Shown: positions 3,362-63,001 of the stretch, piece by piece
How the letters are laid out: each line of letters begins with the position of its first letter
How positions within the stretch are numbered: position 1 is the stretch's first letter
Assembly: GCA_016868035.1 (NCBI GenBank)
Contig: VGID01000001.1
Location: 64,289 to 128,288, forward strand
DNA length: 64,000 nucleotides
Direction of reading: 5' to 3'
Source of the DNA: Betaproteobacteria bacterium
GTDB lineage: Bacteria > Pseudomonadota > Gammaproteobacteria > Burkholderiales > SG8-41
Made by a program: the position numbers and the translations under genes
Notes under the pieces: generated by a model
Database searches by the model: none
What the model was told of the DNA's origin: nothing
What the model saw: only the letters and a program-made list of their open reading frames with translations

Positions 3362-3406
3362 ACTTACATCGCTCCTCATTCGTCACCCGTCCCCGGGTAT
3401 CATCCC

Positions 3407-3455
3407 CTTTTGCCTTTTGCCTTTTGCCTTTTGCCTTCTGCCTTCTGCCTTCTGC
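3407..3455. repeat. tandem heptamers CTTTTGC x4 + CTTCTGC x3
   Basis: Seven perfect head-to-tail units, counted base by base. Confidence 0.95.
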
Positions 3456-3530
3456 CTCAGGCTCTCCCCATCACCCGTCATCCTTGCGCGTCACCGGTGA
3501 CCTGTTGTATCAAACGAAGGAAAGCGAAGC

Positions 3531-11265: not shown

Positions 11266-11727
11266 TCAGAGCTTGCGCAGCTGCTCCAGCATCTCCGCGC
11301 TTTCGGGGATCTTGCCCGGCTCGTAGATCCTCGCGTAGCGGACCACGCCCTTGGCGTCGAGCACGTAGGCCGCGCGCTTGTCCGAGCCGCGCTCCTCGTT
11401 GAAGATGCCGTAGGCCTTGCCGACCGCGCCGTGCGGCCAGTAGTCCGAGAGCAGCGGGAAAGGCACGCCGCCCAGCTTCTCGGCCCACCCCTTGAGGCTG
11501 GCAACCGGGTCGGCGCTGATGTTGAGGATCTCGACGTTCAGCTTCTTGAATTCTTCGTAGTTCGCACGGAACCCGTTGACCTGGTTCGTTCACCCGGGGG
11601 TGAACGCGAACGGCATGAAGGCGACCACGACCGGCCGGCCCTTGAAGCTCGCGAGGGACACCTTCTGGTCGCTGTTGTGCGCGGCGAGCGTGAAATCAGG
11701 CGCGGCTGCGCCGGTCTGGATTTCCAT
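11266..11727 (-). CDS. AhpE/Bcp-type peroxiredoxin with in-frame UGA (probable selenocysteine) at the peroxidatic position
   Basis: Hand translation from ATG 11727 (SD GGGGAG): MEIQTGAAAPDFTLAAHNSDQKVSLASFKGRPVVVAFMPFAFTPG-[TGA 11592-11590]-TNQVNGFRANYEEFKKLNVEILNISADPVASLKGWAEKLGGVPFPLLSDYWPHGAVGKAYGIFNEERGS...LRKL. The length of 462 nt is divisible by 3. The ORF track shows only the 66-aa tail (11266..11466). Confidence 0.72.
11559..11589 (-). other. candidate SECIS region directly 3' of the UGA
   Basis: mRNA after UGA reads ACGAACC AGGUCAACG GGUUCCGU (7-bp stem with one bulge; the loop contains GGUC). An alternative is GGUUC CGUGC GAACU (5-bp stem; loop GU about 26-27 nt from the UGA). 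Folded by eye only. Confidence 0.45.
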
Positions 11728-13270: not shown

Positions 13271-13382
13271 TGCGTTCCGCGTTCGGGGTTCGGAGTTCGG
13301 GGTTCGGCTTCCAGTCCAGCGAACTTGAGCCTTCGAACCGACCGTATTTACCGCGTCACTTCATCAGTCGTCAGTCGTCACG
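13271..13382. repeat. 16-unit heptamer tract (GTTCGGG type changing to CAGTCGT type) overlapping a gene 3' end
   Basis: TGCGTTC CGCGTTC GGGGTTC GGAGTTC GGGGTTC GGCTTCC ... GTCACTT CATCAGT CGTCAGT CGTCACG. The last units encode R-D-D-stop of the 13371..14369 gene. Confidence 0.85.
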
Positions 13383-14369: not shown

Positions 14370-14427
14370 CGTCTCATCCGAAACATTTCCGAATTCACGT
14401 ACTCACCGTGCCACCATAGCGCGCCGC

Positions 14428-14514
14428 AGTGACTCAGTGATTGAGTGATACAGTGATCAAGAAAGAGCCACCTGAGGTCGCCGATCGCTTAGTCATTTAA
14501 TCACTCAGTCACCT
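14428..14514. repeat. palindromic octamer array, AGTGAYNN type
   Basis: AGTGACTC AGTGATTG AGTGATAC AGTGATCA ... inverse arm CTTAGTCATTTAATCACTCAGTCACCT. Confidence 0.8.
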
Positions 14515-14515
14515 A

Positions 14516-14675
14516 GAGCGCGTAACGAAATCAAGAAATATTAACCGCAGATAAACGCCGATACCCGCCGACGAAAACATAAAACCCTTTGGCTGTTCAT
14601 GGGGTTGTTGTTATCTGTGTTCATCGGCGTTCATCGGCGGTTTCAAGTTTTTTGGGTCTTTTTGATACGAGTTCT
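14516..14675 (+). mobile_element. 160-bp MITE-like element, copy A (no coding capacity)
   Basis: Gapless hand alignment to the reverse complement of 57461..57620 gives 135/160 identical. Internal decamer arms CGCAGATAAA/CGCCGATACC and inverse GTTCATCGGC x2. Bracketed by TA on both sides. Confidence 0.65.
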
Positions 14676-14701
14676 TAGTCACTGCGTCAGCCACTACCGG
14701 C

Positions 14702-20783: not shown

Positions 20784-20889
20784 CGTTCCGGGTTCCGGGT
20801 TCAACGTTCAGGGTTCAACGTTCGGAATACAGGGCTCTGGCGCCTCTCACCTCTCACCTCTCGCCTCTCTTCTCTCGTCGCTCGTCAGG
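20784..20889. repeat. 15-unit heptamer tract (GGTTCCG/GGTTCAA changing to CTCTCAC/CTCGTCG) ending on a stop codon
   Basis: CGTTCCG GGTTCCG GGTTCAA CGTTCAG GGTTCAA CGTTCGG ... GCGCCTC TCACCTC TCACCTC TCGCCTC TCTTCTC TCGTCGC TCGTCAG. TCA 20885-20887 is the Ldh2 stop. Confidence 0.85.
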
Positions 20890-22910: not shown

Positions 22911-23022
22911 GTGGTTCCGGGTTCCGGGTTCAGTGTTCAAGGCTCAGGGTTCAACGTTCAACGTTCGAGCATCGGGTATCAATCATCAAACTTTGAACTC
23001 GGAACTTTGAACCTCGAACCGG
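22911..23022. repeat. palindromic heptamer array, GGTTCCG/GGTTCAA type
   Basis: TGGTTCC GGGTTCC GGGTTCA GTGTTCA AGGCTCA GGGTTCA ACGTTCA ACGTTCG, loop, then AACTTTG AACTCGG AACTTTG AACCTCG AACCGG. Confidence 0.9.
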
Positions 23023-24807: not shown

Positions 24808-24810
24808 TGG

Positions 24811-24900
24811 AAACCGCCGATGAACGCCGATGAACGCAGATGAGGCCCTACGGAGCCCGGCAGCGGAGGTATCGGCGTTTATCTGCGTTTATCTGCGGTT
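24811..24900. repeat. short decamer-arm hairpin element (related to the core of the 160-bp element)
   Basis: AAACCGCCGATGAACGCCGATGAACGCAGATGAG ... ATCGGCGTTTATCTGCGTTTATCTGCGGTT. It shares the GAAACCGCCGATGAACGC and ATCGGCGTTTATCTG-GGTT ends with 57491-57592. It fills the whole spacer between the hydro-lyase beta stop and the flavoprotein ATG. Confidence 0.8.
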
Positions 24901-25519: not shown

Positions 25520-25567
25520 TCAGAATCCGTGAATGGTGAATGGTGAAACGTGAATCGAGAAAAACAT
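25520..25567 (-). CDS. candidate 15-codon coupling mini-ORF (MFFSIHVSPFTIHGF) inside the inverted heptamer array
   Basis: Strong SD AGGGAGGAG (25580-25572), ATG 25567-25565, and a TGA stop (25522-25520) that directly abuts the beta-subunit ATG (25519-25517). Hand translated. Confidence 0.3.
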   Translation of the reverse strand: MFFSIHVSPFTIHGF

Positions 25568-25616
25568 CGTGCTCCTCCCTTACGATTTGCGATTCACGAT
25601 TTACGATTAACGCTTT
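25520..25616. repeat. inverted heptamer arrays (GTGAATN / ACGATTT) filling the alpha-beta intercistronic spacer
   Basis: TCAGAAT CCGTGAA TGGTGAA TGGTGAA ACGTGAA TCGAGAA ... CTTACGA TTTGCGA TTCACGA TTTACGA TTAACGC. Confidence 0.85.
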
Positions 25617-26530: not shown

Positions 26531-26586
26531 CCACTCAATCCTCAGTCCTCAGTCCTCAATCCTCGATGCTCAGCCCTGCCGTCAAT
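26531..26586. repeat. heptamer run, TCCTCAG type, overlapping a stop codon
   Basis: CCACTCA ATCCTCA GTCCTCA GTCCTCA ATCCTCG ATGCTCA GCCCTGC CGTCAAT. TCA 26582-26584 is the Bug gene stop. Confidence 0.85.
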
Positions 26587-30249: not shown

Positions 30250-30260
30250 ATGTCAGCTGC

Positions 30261-30436
30261 AATCGCCGATGAACGCCGATACACACCGATCGCCTTCGTG
30301 AAACGTGAATCGTGAATCGTGAATCGCGAAACCACCGGATCGATCGGGAAAGTCCGGGTGATCCTTCTGCGCATTACCCATTCCCCATGACCGGTTTCCA
30401 TCCGCGTTCATCGGCGTTCATCGGCGGTTTCAAATG
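30261..30436. repeat. composite repeat: decamer arm + GTGAATC heptamers + inverted decamer arm
   Basis: Left arm AATCGCCGATGAACGCCGATACACACCGAT. Then GTGAAAC GTGAATC GTGAATC GTGAATC GCGAAAC. Right arm GCGTTCATCGGCGTTCATCGGCGGTTTCA, whose TCA is the stop codon of the 30430..30786 gene. Confidence 0.8.
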
Positions 30437-30786
30437 AAGACGGCGTAGACGGCGCGAAAGCCGAGAACCGCGAGCACGATGCCGATCATCAGCACGGTCG
30501 CCTCCAGCGCCCGCCCGCGCCACTGGAACGTCTCCGAAAGCACCGTGCGCAGACCGATCGGCGCGTGGATCGCAACCGCCGCCACGAACAGCGCGTAGAA
30601 CGCGGCCCAGCCCACGCTGCCCCGGGTGCGCGAGAGGATCTCCGCGGCGGTGAGCCCACCCTGCACGGCGTAGATCATGGTGAGCAGATGCACGAGCACG
30701 CACGCGGCCAGAACCGCCGCGCTCGCCCGCTGCGCCGTCCACAGCAGAACCTGCGCGCGGACGCTGAGCTCTCCGTCACTCGTCAC
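30430..30786 (-). CDS. small integral-membrane protein, SdhD/FrdD-like anchor candidate
   Basis: ORF track, 118 aa. Three TM helices. GTG start and first codons lie inside a CGTCACT array 11 nt after the Fe-S subunit stop. Confidence 0.55.
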   Translation of the reverse strand: MTSDGELSVRAQVLLWTAQRASAAVLAACVLVHLLTMIYAVQGGLTAAEILSRTRGSVGWAAFYALFVAAVAIHAPIGLRTVLSETFQWRGRALEATVLMIGIVLAVLGFRAVYAVFI

Positions 30787-30808
30787 TCGTCACTCCGTCA
30801 CTCCGTTA
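30771..30808. repeat. CGTCACT heptamer array spanning a stop / SD / start junction
   Basis: CTC CGTCACT CGTCACT CGTCACT CCGTCACT CCGTTAC. It contains the Fe-S subunit stop (30798-30800) and the GTG start (30786-30784) of the next gene. Confidence 0.9.
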
Positions 30809-47928: not shown

Positions 47929-48150
47929 ATGGATTCAAAGCCACGCGTCGTAAACTGTCCGACCTGTGGCAAGGCCGCGTCATGGACGCCAGGCAATGTC
48001 TGGCGTCCATTCTGCTCCGAGCGCTGCAAGATGATCGACCTCGGCGCGTGGGCGGACGAGAGGTACCGCGTCCCGGTGGCCGAGGACAAGGACCAGCTGG
48101 AGGTCCAGAGCCCCGATGCGGCGCCGACGGACGCCGCTGGACGCCGATAG
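47929..48150 (+). CDS. yacG: DNA gyrase inhibitor YacG (zinc finger)
   Basis: ORF track, 73 aa. CPTCGK...[14 protein letters not shown]. Confidence 0.9.
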
Positions 48151-48177
48151 GAACCGGCGTCGAGCCGCCAACGCGCC

Positions 48178-48250
48178 AAGATGAACACGGATGGCGCCGC
48201 AGATGAGCGCAGATATGACTCAACCTTCTGCCTGCCGCCTTCCGCCTCGC
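48178..48250. repeat. half-site of the decamer family followed by a CTGCC-type heptamer run
   Basis: AAGATGAACA CGGATGGCGC CGCAGATGAG CGCAGATATG, then TTCTGCC TGCCGCC TTCCGCC TCGCGG. Confidence 0.5.
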
Positions 48251-53081: not shown

Positions 53082-53199
53082 GGAGAGGCGATAGAAGAGA
53101 GGGGATAGGCGTCAAACCCGGGCGACTGCATCGATGCCTTGCCCCTCTCTCCTCTCTCCTCTCTCCTCTCTCCTCTCTCCTCTATCGTCTATCGTCAGG
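53082..53199. repeat. purine arm + pyrimidine heptamer array (CCTCTCT x5, CCTCTAT, CGTCTAT, CGTCAGG)
   Basis: Left arm GGAGAGG CGATAGA AGAGAGG GGATAGG. Right arm 53144-53199, counted unit by unit. The last unit contains the argJ stop (53195-53197). Confidence 0.9.
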
Positions 53200-57445: not shown

Positions 57446-57460
57446 CCGCGCCGGGCTCTA

Positions 57461-57620
57461 AGAGCGCGTGTCAAAAAGGCCCAAAAAGCTCGAAACCGCC
57501 GATGAACGCAGATACACGCAGATAACAACAAGCCTGTGAACACCCAAAACGCTTTTTGTTTTCGTCGGCGTGTATCGGCGTTTATCTGTGGTTAACATTT
57601 CTTGATTTTGCTACCGGCTC
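57461..57620 (-). mobile_element. 160-bp MITE-like element, copy B (inverted relative to copy A), in the secA leader
   Basis: See copy A. It starts 15 nt upstream of the secA ATG, ends 1 nt from the M23 terminator, and is bracketed by TA dinucleotides. Confidence 0.65.
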
Positions 57621-57621
57621 T

Positions 57622-57654
57622 AAACAAAAAGGGGTGGGGAACCTGCCCCACCCC
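57622..57654 (-). terminator. rho-independent terminator after the M23 peptidase gene
   Basis: Minus strand reads GGGGUGGGG CAGGUU CCCCACCCC UUUUUGUUU. 9-bp G/C stem (57631-57639 and 57646-57654). Confidence 0.88.
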
Positions 57655-57680
57655 CCTTCGGAATTCCTTTCTGTAAACCG

Positions 57681-59264: not shown

Positions 59265-59362
59265 GCCGTTCCGCGTTACGGGTTCAAGGTTCAAGGTTCA
59301 AGGCAGGCAACCAGAACGTCGACCTTGAACTTGGAACCTGGAACGTTCAACCCGGAACCCGG
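59265..59362. repeat. palindromic heptamer array, GGTTCAA type
   Basis: CCGTTCC GCGTTAC GGGTTCA AGGTTCA AGGTTCA AGGC, loop, then ACCTTGA ACTTGGA ACCTGGA ACGTTCA ACCCGGA ACCCGGG. Lies between the lpxC stop and the small membrane ORF. Confidence 0.9.
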
Positions 59363-61684: not shown

Positions 61685-61762
61685 CGAGTACCTCCTTTTC
61701 CTGGTCAACGATCAAAAACGAAAAAAACGAGTGCCCTTCCGTCCACGATGTGTCCGCCGTCC

Positions 61763-63001
61763 CTAGAAATTGCCGGTGAACCACGATTTCATCCTCTCGA
61801 CCGTCTGCTGGACCGGCCCGGCCTGCAGGCGCGCGAGCTCCTTCTGCCGGTGCTGCTGCGTGCCCGCCATGAGCAGTCCGACCCCGGTGGAGTAGCGCGG
61901 GTGGCGCACGTACTCCGAAAGCGCGCCGTTGTAGCTCGAATGCCCGACTCGCACCGGCATGTGCAGGATCTCCTCGCCCAGCTCGACCATGCCGCGCATG
62001 ACGCTCGAGCCGCCGGTGATCACCACGCCCGAAGAGAGCAGCTCCTCGTAGCCACTGCGGCGCAACTCGGCCTGCACCAGCGAGTAGAGCTCCTCCACGC
62101 GCGGCTCGATCACCTCCGCCAGCGTCTTGCGCGAGAGCTGCCGCGTCCCGCGGTCACCGAGCCCCGGCACGTCCACCATCTCCTGCGGATCGGCGAGCTG
62201 CGAGAGCGAGCACCCGTAGCGCTCCTTGATGTCCTCCGCGTCCTTGGTGGGCGTCCTCAACGCCATCGCGATGTCGTTGGTGATCTGGTCGCCCGCGATG
62301 GGGATGACGGCGGTATGCCGGATCGCGCCGTGCGTGAAGACCACGACGTCGGTCGTCCCGCCCCCGACGTCCACCAGCGCCACGCCCAGGTCCTTCTCGT
62401 CTTCCGAGATGACGGCCATGGCGGAGGCGAGCGGCTGCAGCACGAGGTCGCGCACCTCCAGCCCGCAGCGGCGCACGCACTTGACGATGTTCTGCGCGGC
62501 CGAGACGGCCCCGGTCACGATGTGCACCTTGACCTCGAGGCGCACACCGCTCATGCCGAGCGGCTCGCGCACGTCCTCCTGGCCGTCGATGATGAATTCC
62601 TGGTTGAGGATGTGCAGCACCTGCTGGTCGTTCGGAATCTGCACCGCCTTGGCCGTGTCGATCGCGCGCTCGATATCGGTCTGCACGACCTCCTTGTCCT
62701 TGATCGCCACCATGCCCTGGGAGTTGAAGCTCCTGATGTGGCTGCCGGCGATCCCCGTGTAGACTTCGCGGATCTTGCAGTCGGCCATCAACTCCGCTTC
62801 CTCCAGCGCGCGCTGGATCGAGTTGACCGTCGTGTCGATGTTCACGACCACGCCCTTTTTCAGCCCGCGCGAGGGGTGGCTGCCCATGCCGATGATCTCG
62901 AAGCCTCCCTCGGGCTTGATCTCCGCGACGATGGCGGCGATCTTGGAAGTCCCGATGTCGAGACCCACCATCAGTTTCTTGCTGTCTCTGGCCTTGGCCA
63001 T
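61763..63001 (-). CDS. ftsA: cell division protein FtsA
   Basis: C-terminal 412 codons of ORF 61763..63238, from ATG 63001. LMVGLDIGTSKIAAIV, VDVGGGTTD. Confidence 0.96.
   Translation of the reverse strand: MAKARDSKKLMVGLDIGTSKIAAIVAEIKPEGGFEIIGMGSHPSRGLKKGVVVNIDTTVNSIQRALEEAELMADCKIREVYTGIAGSHIRSFNSQGMVAIKDKEVVQTDIERAIDTAKAVQIPNDQQVLHILNQEFIIDGQEDVREPLGMSGVRLEVKVHIVTGAVSAAQNIVKCVRRCGLEVRDLVLQPLASAMAVISEDEKDLGVALVDVGGGTTDVVVFTHGAIRHTAVIPIAGDQITNDIAMALRTPTKDAEDIKERYGCSLSQLADPQEMVDVPGLGDRGTRQLSRKTLAEVIEPRVEELYSLVQAELRRSGYEELLSSGVVITGGSSVMRGMVELGEEILHMPVRVGHSSYNGALSEYVRHPRYSTGVGLLMAGTQQHRQKELARLQAGPVQQTVERMKSWFTGNF

Follow-up and report, generated by a model that had tools for sequence, protein, structure and literature searches.

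A composite 160-bp hairpin element in a betaproteobacterial genome, its empty sites and the wide distribution of its decamer core

A 64,000-nucleotide stretch of the genome of a Betaproteobacteria bacterium (assembly GCA_016868035.1, contig VGID01000001.1, positions 64,289 to 128,288), hereafter the window, includes two inverted copies, named A and B, of a 160-bp non-coding element that is mobile, or was so until recently, as indicated by relatives that lack copy B. The element is rather probably a non-autonomous MITE (one of the miniature inverted-repeat transposable elements) of the foldback type, moved by an enzyme acting in trans, and its parent family of modular hairpins is widespread and apparently undescribed.

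Two inverted copies of the 160-bp element

A blastn search against the window aligned nucleotides 14516-14675 with nucleotides 57620-57461 as a single full-length ungapped match with 135 identical positions out of 160 (84.375%, E 8.2e-47), the value that an earlier, sequence-only reading of this DNA had reached by hand. A MAFFT alignment that included 50-nt flanks confirmed that the similarity stops within 1-3 nt of the ends assigned in that reading, and the TA dinucleotides proposed to bracket both copies were read at the flanks, which are ccTA/GAGCGCG...GAGTTCT/TAgt for copy A and, on the minus strand, ttTA/GAGCCGG...CGCGCTCT/TAga for copy B (slashes mark the limits of the element). The loosely inverted ends described before were also found: terminal inverted repeats are present but imperfect, with ends GAGCGCGTAAC and GAACTCGTATC, and the alignment of the left arm with the reverse-complemented right arm shows matches in 49 of 78 columns in copy A and 50 of 78 in copy B. 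Folded as RNA, each copy is predicted to form one imperfect end-to-end hairpin (-47.4 kcal/mol, z -3.3, for copy A; -52.0 kcal/mol, z -2.6, for copy B), and this is also the case for copy A with DNA parameters (-27.4 kcal/mol, z -3.1). The hairpin is built of decamer repeats, as had been proposed, the arms being detected by profile and by Tandem Repeats Finder (TRF) (Table 1). Stop-free stretches reach 43-50 codons at most and for this reason no gene is possible within the 160-mer, in agreement with the earlier failure to find an open reading frame (ORF). With its 160 bp and no coding capacity the element is within the limits that define a bacterial MITE (<~400 bp, non-coding; PMC3184786). The sequence of copy A recurs letter for letter in an independent JGI assembly (locus L136) and is therefore not an assembly artefact. 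Rfam gave no matches at the gathering score over the whole window, with only noise at E<=10 around copy A, and a promoter scan detected no sigma-70-like site in or at the ends of either copy.

The window has the dcw-lpxC-M23-secA-argJ synteny typical of Betaproteobacteria, and its relatives are labelled as Betaproteobacteria or Burkholderiales metagenome-assembled genomes (MAGs). Copy A is located in a spacer of 332 bp, flanked by genes for an amidohydrolase and a 2-hydroxyacid dehydrogenase, and sits within an older CAGTGAT/GTGACT repeat hairpin. Copy B has the terminator of the M23 peptidase gene (57636-57656) on one side and the start codon of secA on the other. The four genes flanking these copies are all on the minus strand and, because the two copies are oppositely oriented beside them, a strand-specific RNA function is unlikely.

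Empty sites

The M23-secA spacer is 235 bp long in the window versus 73 bp in locus L123, which comes from the same species because it is 97.5-98% identical to the window at the nucleotide level over 9 kb. Copy B is also missing from loci L124 and L125 (84-85% protein identity), where the corresponding spacers are short. The filled site in the window reads ...TTTTTGT-TTA-(GAGCCGG...GCGCTC)-TTA-GAGCCCGGCGCGG-ATG, with the element in parentheses. In the three empty sites the common terminator is followed by ...CCCCTTTTTGT-TTA-G... (...CT-TTA-A... in L124) and then by 3-14 variable nucleotides between the TTA and the ATG. TTA (or TA) is present once in each empty site, exactly at the junction, and on both sides of the element in the filled site. 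This pattern follows the logic by which MITEs are called mobile (PMC3184786). The check for empty sites was therefore positive in three relatives, one of them conspecific and, since two outgroups are empty, an insertion of copy B in the lineage of the window is the parsimonious reading. The possibility, considered when the element was first noticed, that copy B is merely ancestral spacer is countered by the same three empty sites.

A more general form of that possibility, namely that the two copies are similar by chance or that an ancestral spacer was duplicated together with its genes, can be practically dismissed. The low complexity of the decamer repeats, and nothing else, speaks for it, and it is refuted by the E value of 8e-47 between copies with unrelated flanks, by the empty sites, and by the copies in other contigs and many genomes described below.

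Another difference between relatives was found at the pilD-coaE locus, where L124 has a 149-bp spacer with a decamer hairpin while the two genes abut in the window and in L125. Separately, a small hairpin is polymorphic within the species: the ftsA-ftsZ spacer of L123 (L123:6786-6855, versus window 61759-61763) carries a 70-bp insert consisting of two perfect hairpins, GCAGTCTGTCG..CGACAGACTGC and AGGAGTTTGTCGG..CCGACAAACTCCT, that the window lacks.

Composite architecture of the element

The element had been described as a simple unit in two copies, and neither part of this description held. In the window there are four exact occurrences of the 16-mer GTTCATCGGCGGTTTC, and when up to three mismatches are allowed it is found at 8 sites versus 0.98 expected by chance. 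A search with an arm profile (80 arms; nhmmer) found exactly 8 arms, which correspond to four elements, plus a relic at 48123-48215; in the genome scan described below the decamer core is present at about 70 of the 117 loci sampled, from many phyla. The two additional elements of the window, at 24810-24900 and 30258-30433, have the decamer hairpin without the outer 35 nt of the 160-mer. The 160-mer consists, because of this, of two layers, an A/T-rich shell (GAGCGCGTAACGAAATCAAGAAAT...TTTTTGGGTCTTTTTGATACGAGTTC; GAGC...GCTC) around a tandem-decamer core, and can be considered a nested composite whose shell and core also occur separately. The relic includes the arms GACGCCGCTGGACGCCGATAGG and CGCAGATGAGCGCAGAT as well as a CGCCAAGATGAAC junction and is probably a decayed element.

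The layering was confirmed by sister species, about 87-92% identical to the window at the nucleotide level, that differ in the interior at the copy-A site. In L128 the shell and core are accompanied by an extra GGTGAAT/TTCACG heptamer hairpin in the loop, and in L129 a 50-bp shell is found alone, with a CCCC loop in place of the core. Locus L134, from another metagenome, has three layers consisting of shell, decamers and GGATTTACAAGATT heptamers. Composite copies number two in the 64-kb window and three more in related metagenome contigs. A metagenome scan with a 22-nt shell pattern, which was too narrow, gave only three matches, and nhmmer profiles of the shell ends matched only copies A and B, L128 and L129 in a search set that did not include loci L132-L139.

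The decamer core in many phyla

To define the distribution of the core, 185,579 species genomes were scanned for the 18-mer GCGTTCATCGGCGGTTTC, common to all four elements of the window, which was found at no fewer than 117 loci. Among the matches listed there are ~70 hairpins of the same design and ~40 chance matches within coding regions for the peptide AFIGGF. The core arms (AACCGCCGATGAACGC...) are present, among these matches, in Planctomycetota, Acidobacteriota, Chloroflexota, Verrucomicrobiota, Armatimonadota, Binatia, and Alpha-, Beta- and Gammaproteobacteria, and the complete genome of a cultured member of the Planctomycetota, Lacipirellula limnantheis I41, includes three loci with core hairpins. 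The arms are identical over 16-18 nt between bacteria separated for billions of years and evolve as a 10-bp-phased motif and not as a helix, which points to a protein partner that is conserved. An arm of three decamers that stands alone, ACATCTGCGTTTATCCGCGTTCATCGGCGGTTTC, was seen upstream of a gene in a Candidatus Methanoperedens MAG (L042:6175-6214, GC 45%) and represents either a cross-domain transfer or a mis-binned contig.

The complete elements (n=53) range in length from 54 to 248 bp. The 47 arms that the search pattern left unconstrained gave the consensus AACCGC c GAT ga A CGC n GAT nn A CGC n GAT, in which the phased columns GAT, A and CGC are conserved at 72-100% and the n positions vary freely. 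In 40 elements neither arm shows any variation in its outer 16 nt. At the variable positions an arm matches its partner at 1.25 of 4 positions versus 1.37 +/- 0.14 for shuffled pairs, so that the test for compensatory changes keeping base pairs was negative. Because there is no co-variation at the free positions between the arms of an element, what is conserved is the 10-bp-phased motif rather than the pairing, and the only dependable stem is that formed by the outer 16 bp. Conservation of a motif without pairing is what would be expected of protein-binding sites.

The arms also close reading frames. Read inward, from either side, 26 of 80 close all three frames and 27 close two, because GA-TGA-AC recurs every 10 nt; read outward, 52 of 80 close no frame.

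Nonamer arms of the CGCCAAGGA type (L003, L057, L061 and L067 in Planctomycetota; L105 and L137 in Betaproteobacteria) begin with the AACCGCC anchor of the decamer arms and, in Planctomycetes, form an outer layer around decamer hairpins; the nonamer and decamer units may be variants of one super-family. As candidates for the identity of the motif, the hammerhead core, the DnaA box, the CtrA box, attC core sites, the LexA site GTTC-N7-GTTC and the 5' end of 16S rRNA (GATGAACGC) were compared by eye and failed on spacing or conserved bases.

Gene context and turnover in place

Flanking genes were called by requiring that G+C content be highest at the third and lowest at the second codon position (GC3>GC1>GC2), which makes the calls approximate; longest-ORF calls were not used on account of the shadow ORFs in GC-rich DNA. 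The elements with both flanking genes called are located in 21 co-directional, 6 convergent and 4 divergent spacers. Their orientation with respect to transcription is 10:9, i.e., there is no strand preference, and this ratio together with the opposite orientation of copies A and B in same-strand operons argues against a strand-specific RNA gene. The median distance from the upstream stop codon to the element is ~25 nt, and the element end TGAAACCGCC often supplies that stop codon. In the element at 30258-30433 the end TGAAACC is the stop codon of the upstream Sdh_cyt-type gene. Three genomes use TGAAACCGCC as the stop codon of the upstream Sdh_cyt gene (window 30431-30433, L138:2571-2573, L139:3229-3231), and the C-terminal residues of genes adjoining these hairpins vary among relatives. 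The hairpins also are a source of spurious ORFs (e.g., ...MNADKRG in L039), shift stop codons and lengthen the 5' leaders of essential genes such as secA.

Across four genomes, the spacer between the fumarase beta subunit and flavoprotein genes is occupied by hairpins of decamers (window), nonamers (L137) and heptamers (L138) and by a solo nonamer arm (L139) (Table 1). The Sdh_cyt-Sdh_cyt spacer has a decamer-type element in L138 and L139 as well, with one arm decayed. Nesting and swapping of modules at one orthologous spacer means that operon spacers of these genomes turn over by a process that annotation pipelines ignore. The decamer hairpin belongs, as one family, to a population of modular tandem-repeat hairpins that extends over the genome and includes old members as well as recent ones.

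These observations bear on an explanation in which the element is a host-selected cis element, either a phased binding-site array or an intercistronic mRNA hairpin with a role in processing, stability or insulation, that evolves in place by repeat slippage and gene conversion and whose mobility is incidental. We consider it distinctly improbable. It would account for the sharing of copy A by sister species at ~88-92% nucleotide identity, the persistence of the decayed Sdh_cyt-spacer element in L138 and L139, the fumarase-flavoprotein spacer that is never empty in the four genomes compared, the conservation of the motif without pairing and the location of the elements at a median of ~25 nt behind stop codons, and for Geobacter (PMC2700814) and Beggiatoaceae (PMC4679880) an interpretation as sites of regulators has been given to comparable phased repeats that had no explanation. 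However, copy B is missing in a conspecific and two other relatives with secA intact, and the insert of L124 is found at a site where the genes of other genomes abut; the element is thus dispensable at the M23-secA and pilD-coaE sites, since there are relatives without it there. The lack of orientation bias and of a promoter-like site does not favor a cis element either, and it is implausible, unless there was transfer, that many phyla converged on an identical 18-mer.

Target duplication and mechanism of movement

When the ends are taken as symmetric, GAGC...GCTC, the left and right flanks are TTA and TTA in copy B and L129, CTA and TTA in copy A, TTA and CTA in L128, and TGA and TCA in L134; L132, whose left end is absent (contig end), and L133, truncated on the left, have TTA on the right. 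TTA (or TA), as a short direct duplication, brackets copy B and L129; in copy A and L128 one base of it is changed, and L134 is the exception. Copy A, L128 and L129 go back to a single old insertion at an orthologous site. TA and TTA alike fit every junction. A TA duplication leaves asymmetric ends, GAGC...GCTCT, and a TTA duplication symmetric ones, GAGC...GCTC, so that end symmetry favors TTA. Three-bp duplications, of the TWA/TNA type, are characteristic of the IS1031 group (IS5 family) and the PIF-Harbinger/Tourist elements. A TTA duplication would point to enzymes of the IS5-family/PIF-Harbinger type, and the insertion site of the IS1031 group comprises three nucleotides (PMC2516522). An HUH enzyme specific for hairpins, with TTA as its target, would fit likewise.

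The sequence-only reading had suggested an IS630/Tc1-mariner-type target duplication. Of this suggestion the TA at the junctions stood and the assignment to that family was not established, given that TTA is the symmetric choice, that L134 is flanked by TGA and TCA, and that no transposase was found in the annotated parts of the window (4.7-25.8 kb, 44.6-64 kb, and ten ORFs of 25.6-44.2 kb). A MITE derived from an IS630/Tc1-mariner element with a 2-bp TA duplication has, in our opinion, a low but real chance of being the right explanation: copies A and B have TA on either side, L132 and L133 have it at their right ends, each empty site has it once, and bacterial MITEs with TA flanks, of the ERIC type, exist (PMC3184786). 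It is disfavored by the asymmetry of the ends that it implies, by the T that is kept before the TA on both sides in most copies, and by the lack of an IS630-family gene in the annotated parts of the window and of a matching inverted repeat in the arm-bearing loci.

In the mechanism that we favor, the 160-mer is a non-autonomous foldback-type MITE with two ~70-bp imperfect inverted arms, in which an A/T-rich terminal part, GAGCsnGTAnCrAAATCAAGAAA, is followed by 2-3 phased CGCnGATnnA repeats, and an enzyme encoded elsewhere would insert it at TTA/TA, leaving this short sequence on both sides. The enzyme could be a DDE transposase acting in trans, which would be of the IS5/Harbinger type in the case of a TTA duplication and of the IS630/mariner type in that of a TA duplication. 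The phased decamers are its putative subterminal binding sites, and nesting may arise as hairpins insert into, or recombine within, each other. Once in an operon spacer the element would be co-transcribed in either orientation and add a long imperfect hairpin and, often, stop codons in several frames as read from either side. Such effects on transcripts and stop codons would be tolerated side effects and not the reason for the existence of the element.

Several observations weigh against this mechanism. The 11 nt from the second TTA to the secA ATG differ from those of L123 at 6 positions, and this tail differs in every relative, so that either it is hypervariable or the site was remodelled and the insertion was not clean. 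The composite insertions that can be examined and are independent number only four to five, and one of them, L134, is flanked by TGA and TCA. At several sites, which are old and shared as orthologs between species or genera, modules are replaced in place, a turnover that transposition alone does not explain. Eight elements from one Burkholderiales MAG share only their arms, with different interiors and outer flanks, unlike a classical MITE family of uniform copies. As to the source of the enzyme, in addition to the lack of a transposase in the annotated parts of the window, no arm pair the size of an insertion sequence (IS) was found in ~1.1 Mb from about 75 loci chosen for carrying an arm. 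A distant blastn search of a plasmid collection with the 160-mer gave no match, although the low-complexity filter may mask the repeats, and in viral contigs there were four matches, all of them coding chance matches to the peptide AFIGGF, and no phage copy. The only arms 0.4-3.5 kb apart in these loci were considered as candidates for an autonomous IS and rejected, since they flank housekeeping genes (in L039, those for a thiolase and an FKBP) and no transposase.

Movement of a REP/REPIN-like hairpin as single-stranded DNA by an HUH enzyme of the IS200/IS605 or RAYT type would make the nesting a direct consequence of the target. Integration would take place 3' of TTA, the second TTA would be the element's own right-end cleavage motif, and loops would be the only single-stranded targets. 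Several features agree with it: the whole element is one hairpin in DNA parameters, modules are found exactly at the apex of others (the L129 shell with its CCCC loop, the third inner hairpin of L128 and L134), a Planctomycete decamer hairpin is located inside a nonamer hairpin, and one TTA in empty versus two in filled sites is equally expected. On the other hand, REPs are 20-40 bp long with a GTAG or CGTC tag (PMC3733652), which is unconserved here, and REP families are normally lineage-specific while the decamer arms span phyla. The arms, moreover, keep no pairing at the variable positions, and the annotated parts of the window, whose genes were called or scanned, showed neither a Y1/HUH nor a RAYT gene. 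We regard this explanation as quite unlikely, and a transposase acting in trans on a foldback-type MITE remains our preferred one.

A more ambitious proposal, possible in our view but doubtful, is that the 160-mer is the visible tip of a super-family, undescribed so far, of modular foldback elements that are made of tandem repeats and served by broad-host-range trans-acting machinery. Its arms would be made, as tentatively conceived, of phased 7-, 9- and 10-nt repeats (CGCnGATnnA, CGCCAAGGA, GGATTTACA, GTGAATC, GGTTCAA), and its modules might nest in loops, be swapped at the same operon spacer and occur near letter-for-letter across phyla, an extension that we hold equally tentative. Broad-host-range machinery would be implied because it is the motif and not the pairing that is conserved and because no carrier IS, plasmid or phage was seen. 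If the proposal is correct, this machinery would be a transposase, or another enzyme that reads or writes repeats, recognizing 10-bp-phased sites.

Comparison with known systems

The Correia/NEMIS elements of Neisseria are MITEs of ~104-157 bp that generate a TA duplication and whose transcripts are cleaved by RNase III. They resemble the 160-mer in that they are of similar size, have inverted ends with TA at each, occur between genes in many copies, are co-transcribed with their neighbors as a hairpin, are not known to have a transposase of their own and live in a betaproteobacterium, and their mobility was also inferred from filled and empty sites (PMC3184786). They differ in having no sequence relation to the 160-mer and in their fixed 26-bp end repeat, uniform copies and restriction to one genus, whereas the 160-mer has tandem decamers, arms that alone are conserved, a modular interior and arms that occur across phyla. 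RUP (related to IS630-Spn1) and Nezha (related to ISNpu3), of 107-170 bp, are likewise non-coding; they have inverted ends and short A/T duplications, are predicted to form stable hairpins and show filled/empty polymorphism between close relatives (PMC3184786). They are distinguished by the existence of an IS with the same ends, none of which was found for the 160-mer in the loci and window parts scanned.

The best architectural match is with the eukaryotic Foldback (FB-like) transposons, compared as an arrangement of terminal motif, tandem repeats and variable center. These have multi-domain inverted ends with variable numbers of tandem short repeats, little or no middle and mostly non-autonomous copies (PMC3169594). 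They are, however, eukaryotic and of kilobase scale, with 9-bp or other duplications and Mutator- or P-type transposases, and the likeness is one of analogy, not homology. REP/REPIN-RAYT systems are similar in being intergenic palindromes that occur as inverted doublets forming long hairpins, with clustering, nesting and a single-stranded hairpin as the likely substrate. The 160-mer falls outside the definition of a REP/REPIN, since its arms are ~70 bp long versus 20-40 bp (PMC3733652) and GTAG is found only in copy B (GGTAGC), copy A having GTAACG, and it also differs from these lineage-specific families in that no RAYT was found among the window genes called or scanned.

The short tandemly repeated repetitive (STRR) heptamers of cyanobacteria, TAACTGA repeats and the heptanucleotide "global regulator sites" of Geobacter are spacer repeats with tandem units of 7-10 nt, often paired or inverted, as is the case here. 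The TAACTGA repeats (Beggiatoaceae, Cyanobacteria and Bacteroidetes) and the Geobacter sites are found in distant lineages with "no mechanism evident" (PMC4679880; PMC2700814). From these systems the 160-mer is set apart by its 10-nt unit with a consensus of its own and by a documented insertion with target duplication. The closest systems are Correia/NEMIS, RUP and Nezha in behavior and the unexplained cross-phylum heptamer repeats as a phenomenon. A text search of the literature with the decamer strings returned only primer noise, and a concept search returned general MITE and REP reviews and papers on heptamer repeats, none of them on this decamer family.

As a plain MITE of an uncultured betaproteobacterium the 160-mer would be routine, and its insertion is ordinary MITE biology. 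What is unusual is that the arms are identical across phyla, that a motif is conserved in them without pairing and that the modules are nested. Its insertion makes a datable event available for the short phased intergenic repeats (STRR, TAACTGA, Geobacter sites) that have long been noticed without a mechanism.

Other features of the window

The features described in the text are listed in Table 1.

Table 1. Location of the 160-bp element copies, related hairpins and neighboring features. Coordinates without a locus name are those of the window.
Feature	Coordinates	Strand	Remarks
CAGTGAT/GTGACT short-tandem-repeat hairpin	14427..14513	+	Context flanking copy A
Copy A, 160-bp composite (outer shell and decamer core)	14516..14675	+	End GGCGGTTTCA faces right; blastn, fold, L136
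Flanks of copy A	14513-14515; 14675-14677		CTA; TTA, the latter if the element end is C14674
Left decamer arm of copy A (TTAACCGCAGATAAACGCCGATACCCGCCGAC)	14541..14572	+	nhmmer arm profile E 6.7e-7
Right decamer arm of copy A (ATCTGTGTTCATCGGCGTTCATCGGCGGTTTCAA)	14612..14646	+	nhmmer E 7e-11; TRF period 10
Core-only decamer hairpin, ~90 bp, no outer shell	24810..24900	-	Fills the 97-bp spacer between the fumarate-hydratase beta-subunit and FAD-binding flavoprotein genes
Decamer hairpin with nested GTGAATC/ATTCACG-type heptamer hairpin	30258..30433	+	Between two Sdh_cyt-type genes
Degenerate relic, two same-orientation decamer arms, no partner arm	48123..48215	+	Profile E 0.0018 and 0.13
Copy B, composite	57461..57620	-	84.4% identical to copy A, inverted orientation
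Flanks of copy B	57621-57623; 57459-57461		TTA; TTA
Right decamer arm of copy B (element strand ...ATCTGCGTTCATCGGCGGTTTCG)	57492..57524	-	nhmmer E 3.7e-10
Left decamer arm of copy B	57564..57593	-	nhmmer E 5.5e-5
Intrinsic-terminator-like hairpin of the M23 peptidase gene	57636..57656	-	Context, directly upstream of the copy B insertion point; kept in empty-site relatives
Fumarase-flavoprotein spacer, nonamer hairpin (AACCGCCAAG)	L137:829-1030		95% protein identity; family that is the outer layer around Planctomycete decamer hairpins
Fumarase-flavoprotein spacer, hairpin of GGATTTACAAGA/AATCCTGT heptamers	L138:8071-8166		85% protein identity
Fumarase-flavoprotein spacer, solo arm	L139:6301-6340		Four CGCCAAGGA units, 40-bp spacer

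Most spacers of the window include tandem heptamer repeats, usually as two inverted arrays that form a hairpin, with the units GGTTCAA, GTTCCGG, GTGAATG, CTCAATC, CCTCTCT and CCTTTTG. They were found at 2386-2465, 3406-3457, 13281-13307, 20785-20884, 22913-23012, 25529-25616, 26534-26577, 30771-30806, 53144-53196 and 59281-59359. CAGTGAT is a further unit of such spacer hairpins.

A peroxiredoxin/BCP-like gene located at 11266-11727 on the minus strand was called as two ORFs of 45 and 66 amino acids that are in one reading frame. They are separated by a TGA (11590-11592) at the position of the peroxidatic cysteine (..FAFTPG-TGA-TNQ..), followed by a GAACC...GGTTC stem-loop. This gene probably encodes a selenocysteine-containing peroxiredoxin with a bacterial selenocysteine insertion sequence (SECIS).

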